DNA of 32,000 nt from NCBI GenBank assembly GCA_000743035.1, contig CP008938.1, positions 1 through 32,000 on the forward strand, read 5' to 3'. Positions within the stretch are counted from its first letter, which is position 1; every line of letters starts with the position of its first letter. The position numbers were made by a program, and so were the translations under genes. Source of the DNA: Candidatus Paracaedimonas acanthamoebae. GTDB lineage: Bacteria; Pseudomonadota; Alphaproteobacteria; Caedimonadales; Caedimonadaceae. This document shows, one piece after another, positions 127-15,702 of the stretch. Below the pieces are notes generated by a model. It saw nothing but the letters and a program-made list of their open reading frames with translations. It was not told where the DNA came from and ran no database searches.

Positions 127-375
127 ATGATACCAAGAGCAAAAATATCTAAGGGCGGGAAAATTGTTATTCCTGCTTTCTTCAGAAAAAAGTTAAACCT
201 TAAAGATGGTGAAGAAGTTATGCTTGAGCTCCAAGATGATCATCTTGTTATAACGTCTCTTAAACATAAACTTGAAGCTGCACGTCAAACTGTAAACCGC
301 TACCATTCTTCCAAAGAAAGTTTAGTTGATATTTTATTTGAAATGCGTCGTGAGGAAGTTAAGCATGAACAATAA
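127..375 (+). CDS. vapB: AbrB/SpoVT-fold antitoxin, VapB-like (82 aa)
   Basis: The N-terminal motif KISKGGKIVIPAFFRKKLNLKDGEEVMLEL..DHLVIT is typical of AbrB/MazE/SpoVT antitoxins. Its stop (373-375) overlaps the ATG (365) of the downstream PIN gene. Confidence 0.8.
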   Translation: MIPRAKISKGGKIVIPAFFRKKLNLKDGEEVMLELQDDHLVITSLKHKLEAARQTVNRYHSSKESLVDILFEMRREEVKHEQ

Positions 376-754
376 TGTTGTTTTAGATTCTTCCGCCCTC
401 CTCGCTCTTCTTAAAAATGAACAAGGGGCAGAGATCGTTGAATCTCTCCTTGGAAACATTATAATGTCGAGCATAAATGTTTCTGAAGTCGCAACTGTAT
501 TACTCGATTCAGAAATGACTTTACAAGAATGCCAAGACACTGTTTTACCGTTTATTTCAGCAATCGTTCCTTATGATGAAGAACAAGCCTTCTTAGCTGC
601 TGATCTTAGAAAACAAACTAAAGCTTATGGTCTTTCGTTAGGAAACAGAGCTTGTATTGCATTGGGGCAAAAGATGCAACTTCCTATCTATATTGCTGAT
701 AAGATATGGAATGAGCTACAATTAGAGGGGATTGAAATTAAACTTATAAAATAA
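365..754 (+). CDS. vapC: PIN-domain toxin, VapC-like (129 aa; the start at ATG 365 is preferred over the ORF-track start at 326)
   Basis: Shows the PIN signature VVLDSSALLALL (first acidic residue), SEV, and LSLGNRACIALG...IADKIW. An 11-nt overlap with vapB is typical of TA operons. The third conserved acidic position reads Asn (AAC, 644-646). Confidence 0.8.
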   Translation: MNNNVVLDSSALLALLKNEQGAEIVESLLGNIIMSSINVSEVATVLLDSEMTLQECQDTVLPFISAIVPYDEEQAFLAADLRKQTKAYGLSLGNRACIALGQKMQLPIYIADKIWNELQLEGIEIKLIK

Positions 755-788: not shown

Positions 789-1667
789 TTATTTTTCTGT
801 TTTCCTGAGTCTTTTTGGCTGACCTAATGCGAGGTAATTTTCTTTAGAGACAACTTTCTTCCCTGTTTCTAACTCTAACTTCTTCCGAGCATCTCCTGCT
901 ATCTTCCCACCTAATCTTGCAGTATGCTTATTCTCTTCAAAACCTTGAGGGTTTCGACTTTGTGTAATTTCTGTTGTTGAGGCTTCACCCAACATTGAAA
1001 AAATTAACTCTAAATCACTCATATGATCCCGCAAATTCTCGCGCTTTAAACCTTTATATTTTTTATGATCACTCGGCACCATCCCAAATGTTGCATAAGC
1101 AATCTCAGCGGTGAGGATTGAATACTCTCTATCTTCTTGTATCCCTCGTTTACTCCACTCTTCTGTCAGTTCCTCATGAATGGCAATACCGCGCATTCTT
1201 TTTTCAATCCACTCCTCAGGATACCCTTTAGCTTTATAAAGGGCACGCGTACGCTTTGTTGCTAACTCAGGATCTTCAATTTCTTGAACACGCTCATAAC
1301 CAACCTTAGCAAGCCAACGCTTAAAAGGTTCTGCTTTAGAAGAAGGAATTGATTGTATAATGCGAAAAAGTGTTTCTGCATTGGCACAATCTGTTGCATA
1401 TAACTTTCCATCCAAGGAAGGTAATTTCAGTTGTCCGATTTTTTCGGACAACTCAATAAATCCTTCTTCCTTTAAAAGCTTTCGTTTTAAATCATCCCAA
1501 TATTTGCGCGGGCGAGAGCTTTCTGTTAAGGCTTCAATTATATCAACAATTGAAAACCACCATTCATCCTTATGAAGAACGCGGCGGATCTTTTTACCCT
1601 TGAATACAATAATCTTATTCAGTTCCATTTTTACCTTATAAGCCTGTGAGCTTGCCTCATAATTCAT
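789..1667 (-). CDS. BRO-N domain / DNA-damage-inducible protein D (DinD)-like protein (292 aa)
   Basis: The N-terminus FKGKKIRRVLHKDEWWFSIVDIIEALT fits the Bro-N motif. The C-terminal part (KGLKRENLRDHMSDLEL...GGKIAGDARKKLELETGKKV) resembles the E. coli DinD C-terminus from memory. Confidence 0.7.
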   Translation of the reverse strand: MNYEASSQAYKVKMELNKIIVFKGKKIRRVLHKDEWWFSIVDIIEALTESSRPRKYWDDLKRKLLKEEGFIELSEKIGQLKLPSLDGKLYATDCANAETLFRIIQSIPSSKAEPFKRWLAKVGYERVQEIEDPELATKRTRALYKAKGYPEEWIEKRMRGIAIHEELTEEWSKRGIQEDREYSILTAEIAYATFGMVPSDHKKYKGLKRENLRDHMSDLELIFSMLGEASTTEITQSRNPQGFEENKHTARLGGKIAGDARKKLELETGKKVVSKENYLALGQPKRLRKTEK

Positions 1668-1683
1668 AACAATAATTACATAC

Positions 1684-3876
1684 TTATGCTTTTATTTTCC
1701 TTTTTCCAGCATAGCAGATAGGACACCCTGATCCTTTTACTCTAGTGCGTACTATGGTTTCCCATATATGCCCTTTATTTTTACACTGCCAGAAAAACTT
1801 CTTAGAACTTCCAGGAAGAATATCAAAGGCTGTGATGGAGCCATTTAAGGTAGGATGTAACTGTTGAGCAATATCAGGATATAGAACAGCCAGGTTATTA
1901 TCTTTTCCAACCCTTCTATTGATGCATTCTGGGCACCCAGATCCCTTTCTTACTCTGCTATCTATTGTTGCTTCCCATTGATGCCCTTTATCGCATTTCC
2001 ATGTTACTTTCTTATTACTTCCAGGCATAACATCTTGAGGGGTAAGAGCCCCATTGGCTTCCTGATCCCATTCTTCAATATATTGGGGATACAAAACAGC
2101 GAGGTTATTATCTTTCCCAACCTTATGATTAGCACACTCAGGGCACTGTGATCCTTTTACTCTAGCGTATACTGCGGCTTTCCATATATGATTTTTTTCA
2201 CACTGCCAGAAAAACTTCTTAGAACTTCCAGGAAGAATATCAAAGGCCGTAATGGTGCCATTTAAGGTGGGATGTAACTGTTGAGCAATATGAGGAGCCA
2301 AAACAGCAAGGTTATTATCTTTTCCAACCTTGTGATTGGCACATTCTGGGCACTTATCTCCCTTTCTTACTCTGTTACATATTCTTGCTATCCATTTATG
2401 ACCTTTCTCGCATTTCCAAGCTACCTTTTTACTACTTTTAGACATAACATCTTGAGGGGTAAGATCCCCATTGGCTTCTTGATCCCATTCTTCAATATAA
2501 TGAGGGTATAGAACAGCAAGGCTGTTATCTTTTCCGACCTTTTGATTTGCACATTCAGGACATCCCTTTCCTTTAGATCTATGACGAATCAAAGCTTCCC
2601 ATTCATGGTCTTTATGGCATCTCCACCAGGCTTTTTTATCACTTCCAGGGACAACATCATAAGGCGTCAATTTATCATTCTTTGTAGGATGCCATTCATT
2701 AGCTAAATTAGGCTTTATGACAGCAAGATTATTGTCTTTCCCAACCTTTTTATTAGTACATTCAGGACAATGCTGTTGTTGAATTACTCTATTAAATATT
2801 GTTGCTTTCCATTTATGCCCTTTCTCGCATTTCCATGCTACTTTTTTACTACTTTTAGACATAACATCTTGAGGGGTGAGAGTCCCATTGGCTTCTTGAT
2901 CCCATTCATCACTATAGTGAGGATATTGAACAGCAAGATTGTTGTCTTTTCCAACCTTTTTATTTGCACATTCAGGGCACCCATACTTTAGGACTGCTCT
3001 TGCATATATAGAAGTTTTCGATTCATGTCCTTTTTCACACTGCCACACTGCTATTCTTCTGCTGTAAGGAGAGATGAGCTCAATTTTAAAAGCTCCATTT
3101 TTTGTTGGATGAAATTGCTTAAGAACCTCATCTGGAATTTTGGTAATTCTTTGATTTCTTCTAACTAATTCTTTTACTTTTGTTCTTTGTCGATTGAGAG
3201 GGAATATTTTATTACATTTTGGACAACCTTGACCATGACTTACTCTGCTACCTATTCTTGCTTTCCACTTATGACCTTTTTGGCATTTCCAAGCTACCTT
3301 TTTACTACTTTTAGACATAACATCTTGAGGGGTAAGATCCCCATTGGCTTCTTGATCCCATTCTTTACTATAGTGAGGGTAGAGAACAGCAAGGCTGTTA
3401 TCTTTTCCAACCTTTCTATTTGCACATTCAGGACATCCATGACCATATGTTCTTGTTCGAACCTTTGTTTTCCATTCATGGTTTTTTTCGCAAACCCAGA
3501 CTATAAACTTGTTACTGAAGGGAGTTAATTCATCCGCTGTAATGATTCCGTTCTTGGTTGGATGTAATTGAGCTGCAATATCAGGACGAAGTGTAGAAAG
3601 GTTATATGTTTCCGTTGCGCGCCCGGGAGAATGGCACATAGGGCATTTTTCATAATACGCACGAGCTTCTATGGTTTCATACCAGAAGTGACCTTTGTCA
3701 CATTTCCACTTTCCCATAATCTGCTTATTTTTATAGGGATCCTCAGGAAATGGATGATCATTTTCAACAGGATCCCATTGAAGTTTAATAGCTTCATATT
3801 GATCTTTTTTTTGCTTCTTAAAAAATCCCTCTGCTAGTCTTGTTAAAGCATTAATTTTAGCCTTCTTTGTTAGCAC
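1684..3876 (-). CDS. Zinc-ribbon array protein, 730 aa, 10 units of W-x-C-x-K-G-H-x-W...C-P-x-C (resembles the DUF4379-type treble-clef zinc-ribbon family); GTG start
   Basis: Ten repeats of about 66 aa (LAVxxPxxxxEWxxxxNGxLTPxDVxxxSxKKVxWKCxKGHxW...GCPECxNxKVGKDNN) were counted in the translation. There is no signal peptide. The C-terminus is basic (AGKRKIKA). The N-terminal region is shared with the 382-aa and 587-aa paralogues. Confidence 0.85.
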   Translation of the reverse strand: MLTKKAKINALTRLAEGFFKKQKKDQYEAIKLQWDPVENDHPFPEDPYKNKQIMGKWKCDKGHFWYETIEARAYYEKCPMCHSPGRATETYNLSTLRPDIAAQLHPTKNGIITADELTPFSNKFIVWVCEKNHEWKTKVRTRTYGHGCPECANRKVGKDNSLAVLYPHYSKEWDQEANGDLTPQDVMSKSSKKVAWKCQKGHKWKARIGSRVSHGQGCPKCNKIFPLNRQRTKVKELVRRNQRITKIPDEVLKQFHPTKNGAFKIELISPYSRRIAVWQCEKGHESKTSIYARAVLKYGCPECANKKVGKDNNLAVQYPHYSDEWDQEANGTLTPQDVMSKSSKKVAWKCEKGHKWKATIFNRVIQQQHCPECTNKKVGKDNNLAVIKPNLANEWHPTKNDKLTPYDVVPGSDKKAWWRCHKDHEWEALIRHRSKGKGCPECANQKVGKDNSLAVLYPHYIEEWDQEANGDLTPQDVMSKSSKKVAWKCEKGHKWIARICNRVRKGDKCPECANHKVGKDNNLAVLAPHIAQQLHPTLNGTITAFDILPGSSKKFFWQCEKNHIWKAAVYARVKGSQCPECANHKVGKDNNLAVLYPQYIEEWDQEANGALTPQDVMPGSNKKVTWKCDKGHQWEATIDSRVRKGSGCPECINRRVGKDNNLAVLYPDIAQQLHPTLNGSITAFDILPGSSKKFFWQCKNKGHIWETIVRTRVKGSGCPICYAGKRKIKA

Positions 3877-3932
3877 TTTCTCTTCCTATAAGAAGCCCTT
3901 CTTTATTGCAGACTGAAATTTATAAGCTCCTT

Positions 3933-6900
3933 TTATGGCTTAAACTTCGGCGTAAAATACATAGAATGACTATCATCACGGGTATTTAAGTCTGGCTCCT
4001 CATAAGTAGCTGACGGATGATTATCATTATCATAAGGCTTTAAGTTCGGCACTGCATACCTGGTATCCTCAACATTATCGTTATGATGCTCAGCATAGGG
4101 TACTCCAACACTATCATCGCTAGAGTTTAGATCAGTATCACTATCTTCATATTCCTTTTGTAGGTCTTTATAGAGTGATGGGAAATCTTCTCCATAGTGG
4201 GATGGTGAAGGGAGCTTGTCCACATACTCTGAAGGAACCTCTTTTTTATAATCTTGTTGTGAGGGAAGCTTATCCTCATAAACATAAGAAGAAGAGCTGG
4301 AAGAGGCAACATTTATGTTAATTGCTCTATTAGTATGGGTTTCTTTTTCTGAAAGGGTTTTCATAAAATCTACAAAGAGCTCTTTAGGAGAAGACTTTGG
4401 CTTCAATTTGAGAAGTTCTTCTTGAGCTTTGAGTGTTGTGAATCTCTTCCTTGGTTTGGATTCAAGCAATCCTTTGATGACAGGAAAAATCGTTAAGTTT
4501 TTAAAATTCTTTTCCATCTTCTCGTAAGCGTCCTCAAGATGCTCTTCAAAATAATCTGAGTCACGTACGTTCATCATTTCTATAACGCCCTTCTCAAGGC
4601 CAAGAGGATATTCATTATTGGTAATCTCAAGCAGAGTAATCCCTGCTGCAAAGGCATCCGCGGCTTTTCCAGAGAAAAGTGTAGCCGTTTCTGTCGCTTC
4701 AAATTCATGCCCCCTACTAGCCATTGCAGAGCGGCAATAGGCCATACGATCAGGGGAGAAATAGGCAAAATCACCAAGCCCGCCTTTCATTTTGTCTTTT
4801 TGTAAGGCACACCCAAAGTCACTGACATATACAGTACCGTCAGTATGCACAAGGACATTGGTTGGTTTGACATCAAGGTGAGAGATGCCATCATCATGCA
4901 TGTTTTTAAGGCCTGTCAAAAGAGAAAGGGCAAAATGTGTTAACAGCTGATCTTTAAGCTTATTATTGGGCAGAAGCGCAAGCTTATCTTGGAAAGTCCA
5001 TCCATTGCCCAAAGCCGCTAAGGGGGTAACTTGCAATAAGAGTTCTTGCTGTGTCATATCTTGGCCACGGATGGTAGTTGACCCAAAGGTAGCATTCAAA
5101 AGCTGTTTTATGTCTCTTCTATTATCAGGCGTTGGTTTGAAATGTAAGTATTCTAATAAAGGTAAAACGCCTTCTTTTTGACCTAAGCTTTCTTGTAGTT
5201 TTCCTTCACGACGAGAAGCTTTTACATTTTCTGTTCCAACAACAACTTTCATCGCATCGTATTGTCTTGTTCCTCTTAATCTAGCAGGGAAGACACGCCC
5301 AAAATTGCCGGCTCCTAAAGTAACTTTTTTCTCATCTTCGTCCTCTTCAAATTCAATGTTAAGGCCGGCGAGAACTTTAAGTTCTTTTGCTTCACGCCTG
5401 TCTACGTCAGGAAGAAGCACATATTCATGACCATGCATGGCCCCTTTGATAATAATCCTTCCAGCCTCGACCCCTTCTCCTTTGGCTGTGAAAGCATCAG
5501 CAGCTACAGCGGGAGTGGCTGGGGGAAGTTCCCCCAACTCTACATCATCATTGTCGAAAGCTTTCTTCTGATTGTTATGGCGATATTTAAGACCAAGAAC
5601 AACGGCCAAGGTCGTACCACCTGCAAGTAACACAGTTCCGCCAACAGCTCCTCCAACTGCAGCTCCTATAACTGTAGCATCGTCAGAAGATGAAGGAGAA
5701 GAGCCACCTGGGATTGGTGAAGGCGTTGGGTTTATCGAACGACAATAAGCATTATAATTGGGATTTGAAGCAGACACTAAATTTTGTGAAAGAGACACAA
5801 TAAAACCATCAACGGGGCTTGAAGGGAAAAAAAGCTCTGCAACTTTATAAACTTGACCCTCTAATAAAGAACCTTGTTGACTACTAAAAGGTTGCTGAAG
5901 GGTAGTTTTACTATGAGTAGGGGTTGTTAACGTAGGATTCCATGCATAAGAAGCACAAGAGCTTGAGGTTTGTTGTGCTGATAAAGCTTGATATTCACAA
6001 TCTGTGACATTGGACCCATCAACCACTCTTTTGTATAAAATTGAAGAACCATTTAATTGATCAATAAAGAAATACGTTAATCGGGTATAAACAGAGTTAT
6101 AGCTTGAGAGAATATTTTTACAAGATAAAGGCTCCATGCTCAGTTGATTAAAACAAGTTAACAAATCATTGTGCAGGCTTCCCCCCAAAGTTATTAAAGT
6201 TTGCTTTATTGTTTGATCCCCTCCGCAACTAGTAGAGCCAATTGTTCCATTATAAGAAGAGATGAGCTGATCATAAGTATTTCCTGTTTCTTCAATGGCG
6301 CGCTGTGGTCTATTGGTACTGATAACTTGAGGTGTGAAGTAGGCAGGTCTTATTTGATTTTGTGTGCTATTCCTTGTTAAAGCGCGTTGCCAAAGGAGAG
6401 TAGGGTTACTTCCTAAAGGCCTTGCTATTGTCGTGGTGAGACCAAGGGTTGTATTATACATTGCTGTAAATACCCAATATTCATGATTAGGAAGCGTATC
6501 AATATAAAAGGGATTCAGGTTTCTTGGGGTCGAAGTATCTGCATAAAGAGTAGCGTTATTAAGCCCTTGATACTCGTAAGCACGAAAATAAGAATAAGTA
6601 GAATTGAATGGTGTATAAGTTATGCTATAATAAGGTGTGTCTGGCGTAAAATTAAGTCTTGTTGCATTTCCATCAGGAATACTGCCAACTACATAAGTTG
6701 AAAGCTGAGCATAATAACCTGTATTATTAAGTCCATTAATTATATTAAGGATCTCAGGCAATGCTGCAGCTTTATTGGGGTTAAAAAGGGTGTTATTGGT
6801 TGCTTGTTGGTAATAAGGATTACTAGCAAGAGAGATTAACTCAGGGCTGTTAAGAGCTGTCCCGAGCAAGAAATGGGAGCTTGCACAGTCTTTATATGCA

Positions 6901-7838
6901 TCACCTGGACCACTACAAGCAGTAATCAAAGAACCTGGACTTAAAGCAGCAGCTGCTGTAATAGCTCCATGGGATAAGATCAAAGTTAATAATCCTATTC
7001 CTTCTGCATAGCGACCCAGAGAATACTTTCTTGTAGAATGATTTTTAAACTTAATGCCTAAAGAATTTAAGGTCGCATATGAATCTTCTGTAAGGCTTCC
7101 CCCATTCATATTTTTATATAAGCGGACAAGAGAACTTTTTACATATTTAAGGTTATCTCTTTTGTGCTCTAGTTCGCTTACTTCTTCTAAGCACTGAGAT
7201 AAAAGAGCGCCTTCTTGAAGAATATCGAGTCTAAAAGCATGAGGGTCAAATTCTTCATCAAAATCTTGAGCAAATTGAAATTCAACTCGTAAGCTTTCAT
7301 TGTGAATTTGCTTTGCAAGACTGCTTTTTTGCAACACTCGATAGAAGTTAGCAAGTTCTTGCTTAAAATGAATTAAGTTACTCTCATTAACATTATTTTG
7401 GTTCATAAGGTGATAAAACTTAGCAACTAGACGACCACTTTTTTCAAAACTTTGATGAAAATTATTTGAAGAACTGTCTTCTGCCAATTCATAACTAAGA
7501 TAATCAAAAAATTCATTTAAATGTTGATAATTAAGAGTAATAAGGTGGTCCGTTATATGGGCCCAATCCTTTTCCCAAGAAGAGACCTGGTTTTCTTTTC
7601 TTGAGGTTTGAGAAGACGAACTTCCTTTTAAAAGGAAAGTTAATTTTTCTTTTATATCTTTAAATAAAGATCCAACCCATGAAGAAGCCTGAGGGTTTAT
7701 TCCTTCAATTTCAGGAGATAAAACTTTTTTAGTATATGAGGGAAGTGGGTCTGTAACAATATCTGAGCTTAATGTTGGATGTGAGTGTGATATACTAATA
7801 ATTGAAAAAATAACCAGCAGTATTCTTCTTAAAATCAT
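3933..7838 (-). CDS. Type-I-topology membrane protein with a C-terminal Hanks-type Ser/Thr kinase domain (1301 aa)
   Basis: Signal peptide MILRRILLVIFSIISISHS. Single TM helix VIGAAVGGAVGGTVLLAGGTTLAVVLGL (nt 5589-5672) followed by KYRHNNQKK. Kinase motifs are LGAGNFGRV, DAMKVV, SHLDVKPTNVLV, SDFGCA and FSPDRM...DAFAAGITLLEI. The roughly 125-aa acidic tail contains 12 Tyr. Confidence 0.9.
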   Translation of the reverse strand: MILRRILLVIFSIISISHSHPTLSSDIVTDPLPSYTKKVLSPEIEGINPQASSWVGSLFKDIKEKLTFLLKGSSSSQTSRKENQVSSWEKDWAHITDHLITLNYQHLNEFFDYLSYELAEDSSSNNFHQSFEKSGRLVAKFYHLMNQNNVNESNLIHFKQELANFYRVLQKSSLAKQIHNESLRVEFQFAQDFDEEFDPHAFRLDILQEGALLSQCLEEVSELEHKRDNLKYVKSSLVRLYKNMNGGSLTEDSYATLNSLGIKFKNHSTRKYSLGRYAEGIGLLTLILSHGAITAAAALSPGSLITACSGPGDAYKDCASSHFLLGTALNSPELISLASNPYYQQATNNTLFNPNKAAALPEILNIINGLNNTGYYAQLSTYVVGSIPDGNATRLNFTPDTPYYSITYTPFNSTYSYFRAYEYQGLNNATLYADTSTPRNLNPFYIDTLPNHEYWVFTAMYNTTLGLTTTIARPLGSNPTLLWQRALTRNSTQNQIRPAYFTPQVISTNRPQRAIEETGNTYDQLISSYNGTIGSTSCGGDQTIKQTLITLGGSLHNDLLTCFNQLSMEPLSCKNILSSYNSVYTRLTYFFIDQLNGSSILYKRVVDGSNVTDCEYQALSAQQTSSSCASYAWNPTLTTPTHSKTTLQQPFSSQQGSLLEGQVYKVAELFFPSSPVDGFIVSLSQNLVSASNPNYNAYCRSINPTPSPIPGGSSPSSSDDATVIGAAVGGAVGGTVLLAGGTTLAVVLGLKYRHNNQKKAFDNDDVELGELPPATPAVAADAFTAKGEGVEAGRIIIKGAMHGHEYVLLPDVDRREAKELKVLAGLNIEFEEDEDEKKVTLGAGNFGRVFPARLRGTRQYDAMKVVVGTENVKASRREGKLQESLGQKEGVLPLLEYLHFKPTPDNRRDIKQLLNATFGSTTIRGQDMTQQELLLQVTPLAALGNGWTFQDKLALLPNNKLKDQLLTHFALSLLTGLKNMHDDGISHLDVKPTNVLVHTDGTVYVSDFGCALQKDKMKGGLGDFAYFSPDRMAYCRSAMASRGHEFEATETATLFSGKAADAFAAGITLLEITNNEYPLGLEKGVIEMMNVRDSDYFEEHLEDAYEKMEKNFKNLTIFPVIKGLLESKPRKRFTTLKAQEELLKLKPKSSPKELFVDFMKTLSEKETHTNRAININVASSSSSSYVYEDKLPSQQDYKKEVPSEYVDKLPSPSHYGEDFPSLYKDLQKEYEDSDTDLNSSDDSVGVPYAEHHNDNVEDTRYAVPNLKPYDNDNHPSATYEEPDLNTRDDSHSMYFTPKFKP

Positions 7839-8002
7839 AATGACGCTTCCCCTAAAAATAATCTAACAATTAGGTTAGCACACGGCATTTTTATGTCAAA
7901 TGTTAACAGGCTAACAACTAAATAGTTAAGATAATATTTTATTTAATTTATATTAAGACAACATATCCCTAAGCATATTAAGTAGTGTGATATTATTAAA
8001 TT

Positions 8003-8701
8003 TTAATTAAAAAAAGAGTTAAATAACTTAAATTTAAGATGAACATTAAATTCATAAATACTTGGCTTAATGCTGCGGGTATTAAGAATTGTCTGTCCTT
8101 GTCTATCCAAAAGAGGGTATGATGAATTCTTATAACGTGTATGAGAAAGTTCTGCCCCTAAAGAAAAACTTTTAAAGGGTACGCTCATCCCAATGCCCAT
8201 CATCATACCGTTTAATTTCTTCTTCAACTCACTTCGCCCCATAAGCGGTAAACCATCAGTAACTATATGCCAATGACCTTTCGTTAAGCCACCTTTCACA
8301 AAGTAAAGAGTTTCGTTATAAAACGTACCCAAACGTACATCAGCACCATAGTTGTGTTTTAGCTGGAGAGAATTTTTTAATGGAATTCTTGGATTGTTCA
8401 CTGAACTATTTATTTTTCCTTTAAGATTTGAAAAAAGGGTGCTTCCTTGTAACGCTATATAATATTTCTTATTAAAAGTTTGACTCAGTTCAACAAAAGG
8501 TCCACCATTTGCTCCATGCATTGCAACATGAGAATGGTCGTTAATATTTTGGTATCCAGGCACAGCATCAGTTAAATTGCGTTTAATATGAATTCTGCCT
8601 AAAGCATACCCCCCTTTTATACCTAGCCATAAACTCGTTTCAGAAGCATAAGCTATATTTGTGAAAATGCTTATTGAACTTACTATAATAAATTTATTCA
8701 T
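8003..8701 (-). CDS. Small outer-membrane beta-barrel protein (OMP_b-brl / Omp25-31-like, 232 aa)
   Basis: Signal peptide MNKFIIVSSISIFTNIAYA. Alternating hydrophobic beta-strand pattern with aromatic-rich terminal strands (YEFNVHLKFKLF). Lies 23 nt downstream of the secreted repeat protein gene. Confidence 0.7.
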   Translation of the reverse strand: MNKFIIVSSISIFTNIAYASETSLWLGIKGGYALGRIHIKRNLTDAVPGYQNINDHSHVAMHGANGGPFVELSQTFNKKYYIALQGSTLFSNLKGKINSSVNNPRIPLKNSLQLKHNYGADVRLGTFYNETLYFVKGGLTKGHWHIVTDGLPLMGRSELKKKLNGMMMGIGMSVPFKSFSLGAELSHTRYKNSSYPLLDRQGQTILNTRSIKPSIYEFNVHLKFKLFNSFFN

Positions 8702-8724
8702 ACTTTTTCCTTCAAGTATTTTAG

Positions 8725-10629
8725 TTAGATTTGACCAGTGGATATTATGCAGAGAAGGTCTCCAAGAGTCATATTGCCTTCAGTGACGGGAACAGAGCTT
8801 GTTCCTGTGAGTGAAAAACCTGGAGGGTTTCCTTTAAGAACTTTAAGAGCTCTATATATCATTGTTAATAATGCGCGAGCTTCTCCATGTGGATCGCCAG
8901 GTTGATTTGAACTTACGCCAGCTACAATTGAGGGATCATAATCTTGTGCCTTATTCCATGCTGTTTGATAACTTGAAGAATTTCCTAAATCAGTATTCAT
9001 AACAGTTGTAATTTTAGCATTAGCTCCATCAAGATCATTCTTTAATACTTGAACCTTCCGTACGATAGGATCAACCCCTGCTGGAAGAAAAGGATTTAAC
9101 TCTGCAAGGCGATCAGCTAGAATGGGATTTGCAGGAAATGGCTGCAATGTACCGACTGACGTTTTAGCTTGAGCAATGACAAGCTCATCGGCATCAAAAT
9201 CATCCTTTAATGCTTGAACCTTTTGCACAATGGGAGCAGGGCCGGGGACCAGAGTATTTACTTCATCCAAACGCTCGGAGAGACTAGGATCTGCGGGAGA
9301 AGGCAAAAGAGTACCGAGAGAATTTTTAGAATCTTGAATCTGAGTATTAAGGGCATTAACGCCTGTAAGGATAACAGCATTACCTACAAGAGCTGAAATG
9401 GTATGCAAACCAGTGGTAAGGTCAGCTGAAGATTGCCCATCTGCAGTTTGCCAAGCATCATTTATTGTATTCTCAGCTTCATCAAGATCATTTTTTACAT
9501 TATCGTATTCATTTTTCAATATTTGAACCTTCCGTACGATAGGATCACCTCCTGCTGGAAGAAAAGGATTTAACTCTGCAAGGCGATCAGCCAAAATGGG
9601 ATCTGCGGGAATTGGCTGCAATGTACCAACCATTGTTTTAGCTTGAGCAATGGCAAGTTCATCGGCATCAAAATCATTCTTTAATGCTTGAACCTTTCGC
9701 ACAATGGGAGCAGCCCCAGGCACTAAAACATTTATTTCATTTAGACGCTCTAAAAGGCTTGGATTGGCAGGCGGTGGTAACAATGTTCCTATGGAGTTCT
9801 TGGCGTTAAGGTTTTCTGTTGTTAATAGTTGAAAATTAATTTGTAGCAAGTCAATACGAGAGTATATATCCCCATTACCGCCTAATTTGGTTTGTAAAGC
9901 TAAAATAGCAGTGCCTAGGTTTCTAGGATTGCTATTTGTATAAAGAATATTAACATATTGATTTGTACGTGTTACAAGATCAAACGCATTGTTCCCAGCA
10001 ATTGCATTTTGTAGGTTTGACAGTGCCGCTAAAATGCTAGTTGTTATAGGCCGATTATCAATTAAATTTTTAAATTGAACTGCTGAGTTCATTAAAGCAG
10101 TATTTCCCCCCATAATTGTCCTTAAATCTATAAGGTCAATTAACATACTTGCACCTTGATCTGCTCTTAGTTTGATAAAGTCTCTTAAGGCCAAGATGTT
10201 ATCTTTTAAACTAAGATTTAAAGGGCCTCCAATCATAGCTTGATTGTGAGTTAAAGCAGTGTTGAGATTATTATTAGAACCTTGATCAAAGCTTGTTGCA
10301 AAATATGCTATTCTCGCATAAAGGCTCCCTGCCCTAGGTACTAATAAAAAAATATTATTTAAAGAAGAATTTATATCAGCAGTCGTGGGACGATTATCTA
10401 ATTGATCTTTAATATATTGAGCTTTAGGAGCATAACCTTCTACTGGGATATCCCCCATTATACGTGCTATTTTCTTAAGTTCGATAAGGGAAGTATCGTC
10501 TGGGTCACAACTTCTTTTGCCAGAAAATAGGTCGGCAATCCCTTGCCCTGTTTCTTCACCTTTAAAAAAGGTAGCAATTGCTGATTGATGAATAAAGAAT
10601 AATAAAGAAACAAGTAATAATTGACGCAA
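8725..10629 (-). CDS. Secreted repeat protein of unknown function (634 aa)
   Basis: Signal peptide MRQLLLVSLLFFIHQSAIA. Contains four copies of a roughly 48-54 aa unit GTLxPxPAxPxLxxRLxExNxxxPxxxxPIVxKVQxLKxxxD. I recognise no enzymatic motif. Confidence 0.8.
   Translation of the reverse strand: MRQLLLVSLLFFIHQSAIATFFKGEETGQGIADLFSGKRSCDPDDTSLIELKKIARIMGDIPVEGYAPKAQYIKDQLDNRPTTADINSSLNNIFLLVPRAGSLYARIAYFATSFDQGSNNNLNTALTHNQAMIGGPLNLSLKDNILALRDFIKLRADQGASMLIDLIDLRTIMGGNTALMNSAVQFKNLIDNRPITTSILAALSNLQNAIAGNNAFDLVTRTNQYVNILYTNSNPRNLGTAILALQTKLGGNGDIYSRIDLLQINFQLLTTENLNAKNSIGTLLPPPANPSLLERLNEINVLVPGAAPIVRKVQALKNDFDADELAIAQAKTMVGTLQPIPADPILADRLAELNPFLPAGGDPIVRKVQILKNEYDNVKNDLDEAENTINDAWQTADGQSSADLTTGLHTISALVGNAVILTGVNALNTQIQDSKNSLGTLLPSPADPSLSERLDEVNTLVPGPAPIVQKVQALKDDFDADELVIAQAKTSVGTLQPFPANPILADRLAELNPFLPAGVDPIVRKVQVLKNDLDGANAKITTVMNTDLGNSSSYQTAWNKAQDYDPSIVAGVSSNQPGDPHGEARALLTMIYRALKVLKGNPPGFSLTGTSSVPVTEGNMTLGDLLCIISTGQI
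9025..9789 (-). repeat. Intragenic direct repeat: two copies of about 285 bp with a 474-bp period, each made of two sub-units
   Basis: The stretch starting TTGAACCTTCCGTACGATAGGATCA near 9047 recurs near 9521, and roughly 85-90 percent identity by eye continues for about 285 bp. This corresponds to a 158-aa period in the protein. Confidence 0.8.
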
Positions 10630-10934
10630 TTTATCTCTCCCCGTAAGTTGCGAGCGTTTGAAATTAACAATTTTTATTAATGTTGTCTAGGTTGCTATAA
10701 ATTTTTCTTAACAGGAAAGAATTTATTGATGAAATAATGAAATCTAGCCTAGTAGCCGTAAGCCTTTTCCATATCTAATATGGATAACATCCAACTCCAG
10801 CTTAGTTCCAAGAAGAAACAATTTAAAAAGTCTTATATTCAGCGGAATATGTCACAATACAATAAAAAGCAATATTCGAAGGTTTCATTAAAAATAGGTG
10901 TAATTTATACTCCTCTTTGCGCACCATCAAAAAA

Positions 10935-12083
10935 TTAGATTTTCCCTGATCTTTTCAGTAATATACTTGCCTTATAGCATTTCATGCATCCTACCCCTCT
11001 TAATGCTCTAGGCGAAATTCTAGCTTCCCATTCATGCCCTTTATTGCATTTCCACCATACTTTTTTCTGAGTTCCAATAATCACATCAGAAGGCGTTAAA
11101 TTGCTATTTTTTATAGGATGCCACTCTTTAGCTAACTCAGGCTTCATGACAGCAAGGTTATTGTCTTCTCCTACCTTTTGATTGGTACATTCAGGACATC
11201 CCCTTCCTTTAGCTCTATTGCTAATAAAAGCTTGCCATTCATGACCATTTTCACATATCCACCAAGCTCTTTTACTTGTATTTAAAGAAACATTTTCTAG
11301 ATTAAATAAACCATTCTTGATTGGATGCCACTCTTTATAAAGATATTGAGGGAAGGTGTTATTGCCTTTTTTCTGTGGGCCAGTTTTACCGACATTTACT
11401 AAATTTCTTATTCGAGGAAAACATGTGGGACATCTTGCCCCTCTATTTTTATTTGAAACACTTGTGCGCCATTCATGGCCTTTATCGCATTTCCAAGCTA
11501 CTTTCTTATTACTTCCAGGTGTTACCTCGTTTGGTGTTAGGCTACCATTTCCTTCTTGATCCCATTCTGCAATTAAATTCGGCCTTAAAACTGCCAGGTT
11601 ATTATCTTTCCCGGCCTTTTGATTTGAACATTCAGGACACCCATTACCTCTTGTTCTTACATATACTTGTGCTTCCCACTCATGTCCTTTTTCACATATC
11701 CACCAAACTTTTTTATTACTTCCAGGACTTATCTCATCAGAAGTTAAGCCTTTATTTTTGGTTCGGTGCCACTCTTTATCTAGATCTGGCCTCAAATAAA
11801 AAAGATTATATATTTCCGTTGCGCATCGTGGAGAGTAACACATATGACAAATCTGATAGTGGGCTCTATTTTCTATCGTTTCATACCAAAAATGACCTTT
11901 TTCACACTTCCATTTACCAACAATATCTTTATTCTCAGCAGGGTTCTCAGGAAATGGCTGTGAATTTTCAATTGGGTCCCATTGATTTTTAATCAAATGA
12001 TATCGATCACCGTCTTGGTGATGTGTTTCTTCTATAGTTTTTGAAAAAATCTTCTTCAGTTTATTTTTTAACACAGCTTCCAT
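10935..12083 (-). CDS. Zinc-ribbon array protein, 382 aa, 5 units (paralogue)
   Basis: Same N-terminal module and ribbon units as the 730-aa and 587-aa proteins. The first ribbon is degenerate (CHMCY instead of CPMCH). The C-terminus is basic (LLKRSGKI). Confidence 0.85.
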   Translation of the reverse strand: MEAVLKNKLKKIFSKTIEETHHQDGDRYHLIKNQWDPIENSQPFPENPAENKDIVGKWKCEKGHFWYETIENRAHYQICHMCYSPRCATEIYNLFYLRPDLDKEWHRTKNKGLTSDEISPGSNKKVWWICEKGHEWEAQVYVRTRGNGCPECSNQKAGKDNNLAVLRPNLIAEWDQEGNGSLTPNEVTPGSNKKVAWKCDKGHEWRTSVSNKNRGARCPTCFPRIRNLVNVGKTGPQKKGNNTFPQYLYKEWHPIKNGLFNLENVSLNTSKRAWWICENGHEWQAFISNRAKGRGCPECTNQKVGEDNNLAVMKPELAKEWHPIKNSNLTPSDVIIGTQKKVWWKCNKGHEWEARISPRALRGVGCMKCYKASILLKRSGKI

Positions 12084-12112
12084 TCCTCACTATAAAGCTC
12101 CTCACCATAAAA

Positions 12113-12319
12113 CTAGATCTTTCCTGATTTTTTCAATAATGTACTCGCCTGATAGCATTTAAGACATCCTACTGCACTTAGTGCTCTATATGAGATCATA
12201 GCTTCCCACTCATGGTCTTTATGGCACCTCCACCACACTTTCTGATCACTCCCAGGAACGACATCAAAAGGCATTAATTCACCATTCTTTATAGGATGCC
12301 ATTGTCCGCTTCATTTTCA
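12113..12319 (-). pseudogene. Severed terminal zinc-ribbon unit and basic tail of the 587-aa gene, in frame but cut off by three stop codons
   Basis: Reading on from the TAA at 12320-12322 in the same frame gives TAA TGA AAA TGA, then SGQWHPIKNGELMPFDVVPGSDQKVWWRCHKDHEWEAMISYRALSAVGCLKCYQASTLLKKSGKI and a stop. This matches the last unit and tail of the 382-aa paralogue. Confidence 0.75.
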
Positions 12320-14083
12320 TTATAGAAGATTATTGCCTTTGCCTGCTTTCCTATTAGAACATTGAGGACAACCTTTACTTCTCGTCCTTACAGATACTTT
12401 TTCTTCCCACACATGGTCTTTATGGCATTTCCACCATACTCTCTTATGACTCCCAAAAACCACATCTAAAGCCGTTAACTCACCATTCTTTATAGGATGC
12501 CATTCATCAGCTAGCTCAGGCTTTATTACAGCAAGGTTATTATCTTTGCCGGTTTTTTTATTAGAACATTCAGGACATCCCCTTCCTTTAGATCTACTAT
12601 AAATCAAAGCTTCCCATTCATGCCCTTTATTGCATTTCCACCATACTTTCTTATGACTTCCAGGACCAACCTCAAAAGGCGTTAACTCATTATTCTTTGT
12701 AGGATGCCATTCATTAACTAACTCAGGCTTTATTACAGCAAGGTTATTGTCTTTTCCAACCTTTTGATTTACACATTCAGGACACCTTTGTCCTATAGAT
12801 CTATTATAAATCAAAGCTTCCCACTCATGGTCTTTATGGCATTTCCACCACACTTTCTGACCACTCCCAGGAACAACTTCAAAAGGCGTTAACTCACCAT
12901 TCTTTGTAGGATGCCATTCATCAGCTAAATTAGGCTTCATGACAGCAAGGTTATTGTCTTTTCCGGCCTTTTGATTGACACATTCAGGACACCCTTTTCC
13001 TGTAGATCTATTACTAATCAAAGTTTCCCACTCATGGTCTTTATGGCATTTCCACCACACTTTCTGACTACTCCCAGGAACAACTTCAAAAGGCGTTAAC
13101 TCACCATTCTTTGTAGGATGCCATTCATCAGCTAAATCAGGTTTCATGACAGCAAGGTTATTATCTATGCCGACCTTATGATTGGTACACTCAGGACATC
13201 CATGTCCTTTAGATCTAGTACTAATCAAAGCTTTCCACTCATGGCCTTTTTCACATCTCCACCAACCTCTTTTATTCGAAAATAAAGAAATATTCTCAAG
13301 ATTAAATAAACCGTTCTTGATGGGATGCCACTCCTTATACAGATAATGAGGGAGTGTATTATAACCTTTTTTCTTTGGAACAATTTTACCGACATTTGAT
13401 GTATTTTTTGTTCGAGGAAAACATGTGGGACATCTTGATCCTCTATTCTTATGTGAAACACTTGTACGCCATTTATGTCCTTTTTTGCACTTCCAAGAAA
13501 CTTTCCTATTGCTGCCAATAGTGACATCATTTGGCGTTAATTTTCCATTTTCTTCTGGATCCCAGTCTACCAATAAATCAGGTCTTAAAACTGCTAGGTT
13601 ATTATCTTTCCCGACCTTTTGATTTACACACTCAGGACAACCATTACCTCTTGTCCTTGGAGATACTTGTGCTTCCCACTCATGTCCTTTTGCACATTTC
13701 CACCATACTTTTTTATTACTTCCAGGTGTTACTTCATCAGAAGTTAATCCTCTATTCTTGGTCGGGTGCCACTCTTTATCTAAGTCTGGCCGTAAATAAA
13801 AAAGATTATATACTTCTGTGGCTCGTCTTGGAGAATGGCACATAGGGCAAACTTGGTAATGGGCTCTGTTCTCTATCGTTTCATACCAAAAGTGACCTTT
13901 TTCGCACTTCCATTTACCAACAATATCTTTATTTTTAGCAGGGTTCTCAGGAAATGGCTGTGAATTTTCAATTGGGTCCCATTGATTTCTAATTGAATCG
14001 TATATGTCAACTATTTGATGGGTTGAATTATCTATTGTTTTTGAAAAAATCTTCTTTAGTTTATTTTTTAACAAAGTTTTCAT
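12320..14083 (-). CDS. Zinc-ribbon array protein, 587 aa, 8 intact units (paralogue, 3'-truncated)
   Basis: The first roughly 880 bp are colinear with the 382-aa gene at an offset of exactly 2000 nt (for example, identical 40-mers at 11941-11980 and 13941-13980). It ends GKGNNLL inside the inter-unit linker. Confidence 0.85.
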   Translation of the reverse strand: MKTLLKNKLKKIFSKTIDNSTHQIVDIYDSIRNQWDPIENSQPFPENPAKNKDIVGKWKCEKGHFWYETIENRAHYQVCPMCHSPRRATEVYNLFYLRPDLDKEWHPTKNRGLTSDEVTPGSNKKVWWKCAKGHEWEAQVSPRTRGNGCPECVNQKVGKDNNLAVLRPDLLVDWDPEENGKLTPNDVTIGSNRKVSWKCKKGHKWRTSVSHKNRGSRCPTCFPRTKNTSNVGKIVPKKKGYNTLPHYLYKEWHPIKNGLFNLENISLFSNKRGWWRCEKGHEWKALISTRSKGHGCPECTNHKVGIDNNLAVMKPDLADEWHPTKNGELTPFEVVPGSSQKVWWKCHKDHEWETLISNRSTGKGCPECVNQKAGKDNNLAVMKPNLADEWHPTKNGELTPFEVVPGSGQKVWWKCHKDHEWEALIYNRSIGQRCPECVNQKVGKDNNLAVIKPELVNEWHPTKNNELTPFEVGPGSHKKVWWKCNKGHEWEALIYSRSKGRGCPECSNKKTGKDNNLAVIKPELADEWHPIKNGELTALDVVFGSHKRVWWKCHKDHVWEEKVSVRTRSKGCPQCSNRKAGKGNNLL

Positions 14084-14152
14084 TCCTTAACATAATAAAC
14101 TCAATGTTTTGCTCCTCAGTTTTTCTAAACTGCATACGTAAACGGACATAGT

Positions 14153-14338
14153 GTTAAAACAATAATGCTTGTAGTACTTTAAGATCCTTTCTTCATTATT
14201 ATGCTTTCCAAGAGTACTTGCAAAATAACCATCTGACCTGAGCCCCCTACTCCATAATTTTTTTCATCTGTGGAACACAACCATAATATCTTCTAAGCCG
14301 CTAAGCTTTTTATGCTCATAATTATTTTTCTTACATCG
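14153..14338 (-). pseudogene. Possible IS200/IS605-family (Y1) transposase TnpA C-terminal remnant
   Basis: The minus-strand translation ...VFHR*KKLWSRGLRSDGYFASTLGKHNNEERILKYYKHYCF* resembles the conserved TnpA C-terminus (xLWSRGYFxSTVGxxxEExIxxYIxxQ). It has an internal stop and a small insertion, and no N-terminal part is present. Confidence 0.35.
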
Positions 14339-14481
14339 CAACTAGGAATAACTTAAACAAGAAAATAAATATGATTATTTTATAATACATCAGCTATGTT
14401 TGCGACACTTACTTGCTATTCTCTATTCTACTACCCCCTAATTCATGATAAGGTTTGTTACTTTAATGAAAAGGACAAATG

Positions 14482-14754
14482 ATGAATAAATCTGAGCTTA
14501 TTAATGAAATTGCAAAAGTAGTTGCTTCAAAACAAGAAGCTGAGCAAGCTTTCAATGCTATCTTTGAGTCTATTAAACAGGCGCTTGCAAAAGGAGAGGA
14601 AGTTCGTCTCACAGGATTTGGAAGTTTCAAAGTAAACGGAAGAGCTGCTCGCACAGGCAGAAACCCAAGAACGGGTGATGAGATAAAGATTGCTGCAAGT
14701 AAGGTTCCATCCTTTAGGCCAGGCAAAGAGCTCAAGGACGCTGTTAACAAATAA
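14482..14754 (+). CDS. hup: Histone-like DNA-binding protein HU (90 aa; an alternative ATG lies at 14479)
   Basis: [11 protein letters not shown]...[48 protein letters not shown] is a canonical HU/IHF-fold sequence. The AAGGA is better spaced for the ATG at 14482. Confidence 0.92.
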
Positions 14755-14841: not shown

Positions 14842-15291
14842 TTAAAAGGGAAAGTCACTTAAAGAACTGTTAGATGAATTTTCAGTCGGATTTACTGCAC
14901 TCATATAGCCTAATGTTGGGCTTGGGTTTTCAGTTTCAGAACGACCATCAAGCATTGTAAGCTCTCCTTTAAACTTGGGAAGAACTATTTCTGTTGTATA
15001 TCTTTCTTGTCCTGCTTGATCAGTCCACTTTCTCGTTTGGAGTTGACCTTCTACATAAACCTTAGCTCCTTTACGAAGATATTTTTCACAGACATCAGAA
15101 ATATTAGGGTTAAAGACCACAACTCGATGCCATTCTGTTCTGTCTTGTCGTTCTCCTGTTACCTTGTTTCTCCATGATTCTGAAGTGGCAACAGATAATT
15201 GAGCTATCTTTGTCCCATCTTGAGCCATTCGGATTTCTGGATCTTTTCCTAAATTCCCAACCAAAACTACCTTATTTACTGATCCTGACAT
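14842..15291 (-). CDS. ssb: Single-stranded DNA-binding protein (149 aa)
   Basis: OB-fold N-terminus VNKVVLVGNLGKDPEIR...TEWHRVVVF...LRKGAKVYVEGQLQTRKW and the canonical acidic C-terminal tip DFPF. Confidence 0.92.
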   Translation of the reverse strand: MSGSVNKVVLVGNLGKDPEIRMAQDGTKIAQLSVATSESWRNKVTGERQDRTEWHRVVVFNPNISDVCEKYLRKGAKVYVEGQLQTRKWTDQAGQERYTTEIVLPKFKGELTMLDGRSETENPSPTLGYMSAVNPTENSSNSSLSDFPF

Positions 15292-15374
15292 AATTGACCT
15301 CTATATATTGATACTATATTACTAATAATACTTAATTACCATATTACCATATTTTTATATTTACAAGAATTAAT

Positions 15375-15502
15375 GTTACCCTGTTACCCTGTTACCCTGT
15401 TACCCTGTTACCCTGTTACCCTGTTACCCTGTTACCCTGTTACCCTGTTACCCTGTTACCCTGTTACCCTGTTACCCTGTTACCCTGTTACCCTGTTACC
15501 CT
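15375..15502. repeat. Perfect tandem array of 16 x GTTACCCT (128 bp), a candidate partition centromere or iteron array
   Basis: Counted directly, with no mismatch in any unit. Two degenerate units (TTACCATA x2) sit at 15336-15351. The array lies in the ssb-parA divergent intergenic region, 200 bp upstream of parA. Confidence 0.9.
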
Positions 15503-15702
15503 AAAAGGGTCTAATTAAAATTGAAAATGTCAATCAAGACCTACAGTTATTTCAAAAAAATTATTTGATAATATTATATTCTTAGGATACTAAGTTATTA
15601 AGAAACTAATAATACAGTAACATAATAAGTATGCATGACTCATATTATTAATAATATTTATATTATTTAAGTCATTGTTAATTATATATTTTGGAGATTA
15701 AT

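Follow-up and report, generated by a model that had tools for sequence, protein, structure and literature searches.

Described pathways that sense from the outer to the inner membrane include the route from RcsF, with OmpA/BamA, to IgaA/RcsC and the NlpE-CpxA pathway. Kinase effectors of the LegK type from Legionella are soluble Dot/Icm substrates that lack signal peptides, a large membrane-bound sensor and outer-membrane protein (OMP) partners. Modular exchange is usually tied to histidine kinases or polymorphic toxins and not to Ser/Thr kinases. Here we analyzed a stretch of 32,000 nucleotides (the window) of Candidatus Paracaedimonas acanthamoebae (contig CP008938.1, positions 1 to 32,000 of the forward strand), and within it a block of seven minus-strand genes at 789-14083. 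Three of them, encoding a membrane kinase, a small putative OMP and a predicted secreted repeat protein that we call X, form a module; the others encode three zinc-ribbon (ZnR) arrays of the DUF4379 family and a BRO protein. Published work assigns to CapR/DUF4379-like arrays the role of DNA-binding module in EDxHD/Vsr-type homing endonucleases, a large group that has had little recognition (PMC12350094), and Marseilleviridae have proteins that join DUF4379 units to a restriction-endonuclease domain (PMC5513546). The source organism is a Holosporales endosymbiont that lives in the cytoplasm of Acanthamoeba and has five plasmids (PMC11909080). The replicon analyzed here is a 71-kb plasmid, and the product of ORF 3933-7838(-) is identical to the NCBI entry IM40_09950, a hypothetical protein. 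We hold with moderate confidence that the block is a composite sitting in a variable cargo slot of a plasmid family found in Caedimonadaceae-like endosymbionts of protists, made of an X-OMP-kinase envelope-signalling module, ZnR arrays at the junction of plasmid backbone and cargo, and an independent BRO gene.

The features of the core module, with amino acid (aa) positions and support from hydropathy, AlphaFold 2 (AF2) and its confidence score, the predicted local distance difference test (pLDDT), are the following:

3933-7838, minus strand: membrane Hanks-type Ser/Thr kinase of 1301 aa, with a Pkinase match
6999-7838, minus strand: kinase residues 1-280, comprising H1 (signal-peptide-like, aa 1-19) and a helical-bundle domain (hydropathy, AF2)
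6930-6998, minus strand: H2, conserved hydrophobic segment, aa 281-303, with K/R before it and an AxA-like motif at its end
5679-6929, minus strand: predicted sensor domain, aa 304-720, alpha/beta, Asn/Ser/Thr-rich, with 8 Cys (AF2 pLDDT mostly 80-90)
5589-5738, minus strand: Ser-rich linker and Gly-rich transmembrane (TM) segment H3, aa 700-750, the recombination junction
4419-5333, minus strand: kinase catalytic domain, aa 836-1140, with the motifs GAGNFG, AMK, HLDVKPTN and DFG
3936-4418, minus strand: C-terminal tail, aa 1141-1301, acidic, Tyr-rich and of low complexity, with conserved motifs
8003-8701, minus strand: putative small outer-membrane beta-barrel protein of 232 aa, a divergent OMP_b-brl protein by orthology
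8725-10629, minus strand: X, predicted secreted helical/coiled-coil repeat protein of 634 aa, with a TTG start and a signal-peptide-like N-terminus

The X-OMP-kinase triad recurs in about 10 distinct loci of Caedimonadaceae/Nucleicultricaceae-like symbionts, in plasmid as well as chromosomal contexts. These loci, some of them in metagenome-assembled genomes (MAGs), are referred to by L numbers:

L001, Logan contig: kinase 78%, OMP 94% and X C-terminus 87% identical
L002, ENA metagenome: X C-terminus, OMP (56%) and kinase N-terminus
L003, JGI metagenome: X (435 aa), OMP and kinase (48%)
L005/6, Logan contigs: hisS-prfA-prmC-clpB, then the triad
L007, Logan contig: permuted order kinase-X-OMP, with PBP1A and ubiA on either side
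L009, alphaproteobacterial MAG: triad
L015, Caedibacter sp. 38-128: triad
L058/59, JGI metagenome: X-OMP divergent from the kinase
L073, Nucleicultricaceae MAG: MerR/Cu-ATPase pair, then the triad

Seven co-directional genes are by themselves weak evidence, and what goes beyond chance is this linkage recurring elsewhere. The preliminary description of this DNA had taken homologues that are only scattered as speaking against its reading, and they are not scattered. For its zinc-ribbon part the linkage also holds, as DUF4379 genes of the head type described below recur beside kinase-family genes on related plasmids.

The kinase matched the Pfam model PF00069 with 73.8 bits (cut-off 31.7) over residues 837-1139, which makes it a member of that superfamily. 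Its catalytic motifs are intact and kept in nine members of the family, and from them the enzyme is predicted to be catalytically competent; in HLDVKPTN a Leu replaces Arg, making it a non-RD kinase. A word-index search with the kinase returned only itself and one homologue (78% identity). An exhaustive phmmer search of 1.84 billion representatives led to the identification of full-length relatives with the same length and architecture (31-48% identity), together with many more distant C-terminal kinases and with versions of the N-terminal part that carry no kinase. Such kinase-less helical-plus-sensor genes were seen at L004 19350-20933 and L010 6190-8742 and in proteins P0019 and P0066, one of them 5 kb from a full-length kinase. 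The named sources of the relatives are alphaproteobacterial and Nucleicultricaceae MAGs, joined after a genome scan by MAGs under the labels Caedibacter sp. 38-128 (two copies) and 37-49; the remaining relatives are all on bacterial-looking metagenome contigs. In L012, a contig of a related plasmid (MAG Caedibacter sp. 38-128, near 9218), the kinase is frameshifted within the sensor, and just the last 41 OMP codons stand upstream; the split reflects decay of this copy or else an error of assembly.

The best PDB matches of the kinase domain are eukaryotic kinases at ~1e-9, which is weak and generic, and its best NCBIfam matches (LanL, Mad6 and PknB, at ~1e-10) lie far under the cut-offs. Against the PknB/Stk1 model NF033483 the protein scored 39.8 bits (cut-off 450), its kinase domain is C-terminal and no PASTA repeats were found; against the Mad6 model NF047741 it scored 42 bits (cut-off 460), and the PADLOC mad6 match is limited to the kinase domain. 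A eukaryotic (amoeba) origin of the kinase, suggested by its sequons, its Cys and the eukaryotic top PDB matches, was rejected as unsupported: the relatives are all on bacterial contigs and bacterial models score equally. A literature search from which most subscription-journal papers fell outside returned no paper on the module, on the ZnR 'head' subfamily or on the plasmid family, and both the kinase family and the three-gene module are previously undescribed.

Hydropathy analysis gave three conserved hydrophobic segments in the kinase, H1 (aa 1-19), H2 (aa 281-303) and H3 (aa 721-750). In all nine full-length members K/R residues flank H2 mainly on its N-terminal side (1-5 before versus 0-1 after) and H3 on its C-terminal side (3-6 after versus 0-1 before). 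Of the 9 Cys located N-terminal to the kinase domain, 8 fall within aa 300-720. H2 is thus predicted to be oriented N-in/C-out. Because of this K/R distribution and Cys pattern we infer that aa 304-720 form an extracytoplasmic, disulfide-bonded sensor and that the kinase domain is cytoplasmic, an arrangement in which aa 21-280, the helical domain, would also face the cytoplasm. The membrane segments and the Cys-rich extracytoplasmic domain would place the protein in the bacterial inner membrane. The AF2 model, built on a 13-sequence alignment (mean pLDDT 68.5), contains a helical bundle at 87-260 (pLDDT 60-89) and, spanning 300-700, an alpha/beta domain (pLDDT 80-90); the hydrophobic helix between them, at 274-299, is of low confidence. 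A Foldseek comparison of the sensor model with the PDB gave no fold match (best TM score 0.1), the sensor profile found nothing among PDB sequences, and residues 1-280 had neither a Pfam nor a PDB match. The sensor carries 15-36 N-x-S/T sequons per 1000 residues versus 0-5 in the kinase domain, a density five to ten times higher, which could reflect glycosylation or merely an Asn/Ser/Thr-rich composition. Three sequon positions in the region encoded by 5679-6929 are kept in at least 5 of the 9 family members. The tail has 12 Tyr, ends in a PKFK motif and carries a conserved YG-x-[ED]-[LFI]-PSLYK-[ED]-L motif.

Between the kinase genes of the window and L001, synonymous divergence (dS) rises from 0.095 (codons 1-600) through 0.60 (codons 601-722) to 1.1-1.6 (codons 723-1301). 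The flanking OMP and X genes have a dS of 0.15-0.20, and the ratio of non-synonymous to synonymous change (omega) is 0.15-0.35 throughout. For the L001 kinase, identity over the sensor is 94% with the window and 35% with L012, identity over the TM-kinase half is 92% with L012, and the switch point lies at residues ~700-725, in the Ser-rich linker before H3. A second chimera is IM40_10340 (AIL13787.1, protein P0159), encoded on a second plasmid, of 169 kb, in the same organism. Its identity to the window kinase is 90% over the TM, juxtamembrane and kinase regions and 82% over the tail, and falls to 27% over the helical and sensor domains, which belong to the P0008 type (52-63%). The crossover at aa ~700-725 is common to these two independent chimeras. 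As read from the sequences, the sensor and TM-kinase-tail halves recombine as modules at the linker preceding the membrane segment, and one bacterium carries at least two sensors on nearly one kinase half. This modular pattern would fit a role in signalling, with the output of the protein co-evolving with the cell it belongs to.

Both partner proteins, of 232 aa and 634 aa, have signal-peptide-like N-termini. OMP orthologues were found beside the kinases of L003, L005, L007 and L009 (1e-16 to 1e-32 by blastp/tblastn) and four of the seven aligned orthologues matched PF13505, the best at 2.4e-14; through them the window OMP is assigned as a putative OMP_b-brl member. Used as a query against genome and metagenome contig collections, the OMP returned nothing, and the source plasmid is apparently itself absent from them. 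The X gene contains an internal 474-nt tandem duplication (9035-9327 and 9509-9801). A word-index search with X found near-identical homologues only; in L003, L005, L007, L058 and L073 its positional counterparts are coiled-coil-like, with weak similarity (1e-5 to 1e-3). X is thus fast-evolving, yet its position and its C-terminal amphipathic end are kept. A partial copy of X, 98% identical, is present as P0003 (WP_032114235.1) on a 4580-bp contig filed under Candidatus Paracaedibacter symbiosus, a different amoeba-symbiont family; it represents either a shared plasmid or assembly cross-contamination.

Because of this architecture and linkage, we consider it most likely that the module at 3933-10629 works as a signalling pathway across the envelope. 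X and the barrel would be its outer-envelope part, an envelope- or host-derived signal would reach the periplasmic sensor domain of the kinase, and the kinase, facing the bacterial cytoplasm, would phosphorylate Ser/Thr of bacterial targets.

The zinc-ribbon genes lie on both sides of this module, and one group adjoins the plasmid backbone:

1684-3876, minus strand: ZnR730, 10 DUF4379 treble-clef units with a 'head' and no nuclease (PF14311 551 bits; omega 0.10)
10935-12083, minus strand: ZnR382, 5 DUF4379 units (PF14311 277 bits; omega 0.25)
12320-14083, minus strand: ZnR587, 8 DUF4379 units with a 'head' (PF14311 481 bits)
12103-12301, minus strand: decayed DUF4379 unit past the ZnR587 stop codon (76% nucleotide identity to 10925-11123)
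14479-14754, plus strand: HU, conserved plasmid backbone at the edge of the cargo slot
14842-15291, minus strand: SSB, conserved plasmid backbone at the edge of the cargo slot

ZnR730, ZnR382 and ZnR587 all gave repeated PF14311 matches with paired CxxC motifs. ZnR382 is shorter than its paralogue ZnR587 and matches it at 75% identity over 358 aa, ZnR730 is 56% identical to ZnR587, and the omega values among these paralogues (0.10-0.27) indicate purifying selection. The decayed unit resembles the 3' end of ZnR382; either the ZnR587 array was once longer or its end was lost by a premature stop. We tested the proteins as EDxHD/Vsr homing endonucleases and found no C-terminal nuclease, as they end within or right after the last unit. 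Their matches to PHROGs 559 and 681, phage HNH/endonuclease families, are confined to the zinc-ribbon part. Among relatives on viral contigs the arrays occur both stand-alone and with a C-terminal EYxGxQH-type nuclease, and DUF4379 arrays are present on 177 PLSDB plasmids, often in several copies. By their sequences the window genes are nuclease-less DUF4379 arrays with a putative DNA-binding role, and hence members of DUF4379 but not homing endonucleases. Near-identical DNA for the block was absent from PLSDB, where the sole megablast match was of 38 nt: positions 11680-11717 match exactly a DUF4379 gene on a Brevibacillus halotolerans plasmid, which is probably codon-level conservation of the repeat motif.

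The N-terminal head of the window arrays (QWDP..N..FPE.P...GKWKCEKGHFWYETIE) is the mark of a symbiont-specific subfamily. The same head is found in the DUF4379 genes touching the kinase in L003 and L004 (60-62% identity), the kinases there being 32-48% identical to that of the window. In L003 the head-type array (5614-7242, minus strand) has one in-frame stop, so that ~540 aa are split into a called gene of 288 aa and a tail. A metagenome scan with the head led to the identification of 15 loci, mostly on plasmids related to the window plasmid (Rep 50-78%, SSB 79-97% and HU 75-95% identical). Their gene order is Rep-ParA-SSB-HU, a head-type ZnR gene and then often a kinase-family gene of another subfamily; the HU-SSB-ParA-Rep order adjoins a head-type ZnR gene in L058, L064 and L066-71. 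The kinases concerned are:

L058/59: P0007-type kinase with OMP and X, beside the head-type ZnR gene
L064 and L066/67: P0011-type kinase, convergent with the head-type ZnR gene
L060/62: P0010-type kinase, 9 kb from the head-type ZnR gene

No kinase lies within the flanks of the head-type ZnR gene in L061, L065, L069/70 and L072. The closest relative, L069/70, is 97.5% identical to the window over LysR-nitroreductase and 91% over the SSB-HU-spacer-ZnR587 head; homology ends 78 codons into ZnR587, at window position 13849, beyond which L069/70 carries other genes. L012 has remnants of Rep, LysR and DUF3310 in common with the window. Among the neighbours in the cargo region of related elements are autotransporters, a patatin-lectin protein, Sel1, F-box and LuxR genes and an integrase fragment. 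The preliminary description had proposed, as one of its options, an unknown envelope-signalling system carried as mobile cargo, and this fits the core: L069/70 has other cargo at the same site, and related plasmids bear autotransporter, patatin, Sel1 and F-box genes in the same region. A ZnR gene stands beside the kinase in 3 of the 11 loci found through the kinase and in 4 of the 7 distinct loci found through ZnR, and no ZnR gene was found beside the chromosomal triads. Since the ZnR-positive kinase loci are all plasmid-like, shared location suffices as an explanation, and the adjacency would mainly reflect common residence in the cargo slot.

Several observations weigh against the composite with an envelope-signalling core. 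The kinase occurs without X or OMP in L004, L008, L013, L064 and L066, and in L012 it has an OMP remnant only; with the kinase found without its partners, we regard it as the core, and X-OMP as frequent but dispensable. The window OMP itself did not match PF13505 directly even at E<=10 (Pfam), neither it nor X had any Pfam, NCBIfam or PDB match, and a single-sequence AF2 model of the OMP (pLDDT 32) is unusable. X proteins are hardly alignable from locus to locus. A helical domain on the cytoplasmic side conflicts with an H1 that resembles a cleavable signal peptide, and if H1 is cleaved and H2 and H3 both span the membrane, the kinase would lie outside the cytoplasm; the K/R and Cys patterns argue the opposite. 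The sensor model is of moderate confidence (pLDDT 68.5 overall) and comes from 13 sequences only. Finally, adjacency in 3 of 11 and 4 of 7 loci may exceed what slot-sharing would produce and so favour a functional tie between ZnR and kinase.

Such a tie is possible and would make the ZnR arrays partners of the kinase, as its nucleic-acid-binding output or its substrate, so that X-OMP-kinase-ZnR would be one mobile system leading from signal to nucleic acid, which we rate as unlikely. The same head subfamily (60-62%) lies 0.1-2.5 kb from kinases that are themselves 32-57% identical, in the window, L003, L004, L058, L064 and L066/67 and in same-strand, divergent and convergent orientations. The ~20-kb flanks of L003 and of L004 each hold a single DUF4379 gene, which touches the module. 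The arrays are also under purifying selection and without nuclease, which indicates that they are not merely decaying selfish genes. In contrast, the chromosomal triads all do without ZnR genes, every ZnR-positive kinase locus is plasmid-like and the ZnR loci L061, L065, L069/70 and L072 have no kinase in their flanks. In L001 homology stops ~20 nt past the kinase stop codon with no ZnR gene there, and bacteria lacking such a kinase have plasmids and phages on which stand-alone DUF4379 arrays are plentiful. A broader version, in which a cassette-swapping trans-envelope system uses the ZnR arrays as its output on plasmids and thereby links a host-exposed surface to DNA/RNA binding, the whole route moving between symbionts as plasmid cargo, seems to us improbable.

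We regard as similarly improbable an effector island aimed at the host. In that reading the kinase, possibly along with the ZnR proteins, would reach the cytosol or membranes of the amoeba through a type IV secretion system (T4SS) or by surface exposure; the Tyr-rich tail would then mimic phosphotyrosine docking sites and the kinase would act on host proteins. The bacterium is free in the Acanthamoeba cytoplasm (PMC11909080), the 12 Tyr of the tail lie in acidic motifs such as YEEP, the ectodomain is rich in sequons and related elements carry F-box, Sel1, patatin and autotransporter neighbours. The parity of the segments left after cleavage of H1 would also put the kinase outside the cytoplasm, but the K/R residues around H2/H3 and the Cys in aa 300-720 place it inside the bacterium in 9 of 9 members. 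The best PDB matches of the kinase domain are eukaryotic, though at ~1e-9, and bacterial kinase models score equal to eukaryotic ones, with the relatives all on bacterial contigs. Chromosomal copies sit amid housekeeping genes, free-living bacteria and phages commonly carry members of the zinc-ribbon family, and the T4SS of the window is an ordinary VirB-type plasmid set. Nothing indicates T4SS translocation, for which there is no reliable sequence signal, and the host-interaction or effector island put forward earlier was not supported.

The seventh gene of the block and its neighbour are:

789-1667, minus strand: BRO-N domain protein of 292 aa (Pfam Bro-N 3e-11)
127-754, plus strand: MazE/PIN toxin-antitoxin (TA) pair, flanking the block

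The BRO protein is a full-length member of the phage family phrog_15286 (1e-92) and matches positions 4-274 of 286 of PDC-S13 (6.4e-119), a candidate single-gene defence family of PADLOC, whose PDC families are candidate systems only. No BRO homologue was found beside the other kinase loci. From these matches the BRO gene is taken as an independent phage/plasmid gene and candidate defence gene outside the kinase module. Together with the MazE/PIN pair it makes up a small defence/addiction corner unrelated to that module. That the block serves in conflicts with phages or mobile elements, the kinase working like the defence kinases Stk2, PD-T4-6 or MADS Mad6, is very improbable: the BRO gene with its PDC-S13 match adjoins the MazE/PIN pair, the kinase domain matches the mad6 (1.8e-21) and PD-T4-6 models and zinc-ribbon arrays stem from homing-endonuclease modules, but the kinase matches span the generic catalytic domain only (NF047741 42 bits versus 460), known defence kinases are cytoplasmic and have no 700-residue membrane-bound N-terminal part, OMP or secreted partner, and no BRO or TA gene accompanies the kinase at any other locus. 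We rejected the defence reading of the block, which the BRO gene alone fits.

The layout of the block was largely as first described. The seven minus-strand ORFs are present (789-1667, 1684-3876, 3933-7838, 8003-8701, 8725-10629, 10935-12083 and 12320-14083) and the gaps of 16, 56, 164, 23, 305 and 236 nt are exact. On the side said to be bounded by a TA/BRO module, the TA pair does lie outside, and the BRO gene does not, being the first ORF within the block. On the other side the plasmid backbone (hup, ssb, par) was confirmed by HU, SSB and ParA. The IS200-like remnant placed there (~14090-14263, minus strand) is a 58-aa stop-free segment whose likeness to an IS200 C-terminus is by eye only; a Pfam search of it at E<=1 was empty, with no Y1_Tnp profile match for an IS200/IS605 TnpA. 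The idea of a single 13.3-kb unit had to be given up: the triad also occurs in chromosomal housekeeping contexts without zinc-ribbon genes, the zinc-ribbon arrays form a family across plasmids, phages and giant viruses of free-living bacteria, and BRO is a separate candidate defence gene. We also rejected the block as a transposon or excisable unit, as there are no inverted repeats of at least 40 nt and the ZnR copies on its two sides are merely 60-67% identical in DNA. Consensus promoter and terminator scans were at chance level (37 found versus 40.7 expected and 11 found versus 10.2 expected, respectively), and are therefore uninformative on operon boundaries; Rfam and tRNA scans were empty.

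Beyond SSB the backbone continues with ParA and two DnaA_N-type Rep proteins, and VirB2/3/4/6/8/9 genes run to the window end. The two paralogous replication-type proteins, with a C-terminal DnaA_N, are encoded at 17218-18477 and 22770-24230, with nitroreductase and LysR genes between them, and this Rep-o199 pair is kept in related metagenomic plasmids too. The gap between ssb and parA contains, at 15374-15509, ~17 perfect tandem copies of the 8-bp unit TGTTACCC, probably a plasmid partition site or iterons.

Little is understood at the molecular level about Holosporales-type symbionts of amoebae and ciliates, and no function has been described for any of the genes treated here. With its sensor of no known fold and its linked envelope proteins, the conserved kinase module is a concrete candidate for the means by which these bacteria sense their intracellular niche. 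It also offers fixed-junction exchange in a Ser/Thr kinase, with two chimeras, one of them within a single organism. The nuclease-less homing-endonuclease arrays beside kinases on one plasmid family may represent domestication of a selfish-element module.

How does the module compare with known systems? With PknB/Stk1 the kinase shares a membrane-anchored Pkinase-fold enzyme with intact catalytic motifs and an extracytoplasmic sensor, predicted here. It departs from PknB/Stk1 in placing the sensor ahead of the kinase, which is the reverse order, and in having three hydrophobic segments where those have one, a non-RD (HLD) loop, a long acidic Tyr-rich tail and conserved OMP and secreted partners; PASTA or any other known sensor is lacking. 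Two-TM sensor histidine kinases and the Rcs and Cpx systems resemble it in logic only, through a periplasmic sensor between TM segments, a cytoplasmic kinase, modular input and output and a linkage to genes for outer-envelope components. There is no kinship in sequence or fold with these systems: the kinase at the output is of the Ser/Thr and not the His type, there is no linked response regulator, and the place of lipoproteins is taken by a small barrel and a coiled-coil repeat protein. With LegK effectors it has in common a Pkinase-fold enzyme, encoded by a mobile element, in a bacterium living inside amoebae. The ZnR arrays resemble the EDxHD/Vsr (PMC12350094) and Marseilleviridae (PMC5513546) proteins in their tandem treble-clef units of ~60-70 aa from the same Pfam family, and differ from the EDxHD/Vsr endonucleases by their 5-10 units, the lack of a nuclease, the symbiont-specific head and purifying selection. 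The putative OMP resembles alphaproteobacterial OMP_b-brl proteins in its size (~230 aa), signal peptide, alternating-strand sequence and C-terminal aromatic-rich strand, but falls below profile detection, and its family is specifically linked to a kinase gene. In all, the kinase belongs to the known Hanks-type superfamily, and what is new in it is its domain order, its sensor, its conserved partners and the junction-specific exchange of its cassettes.

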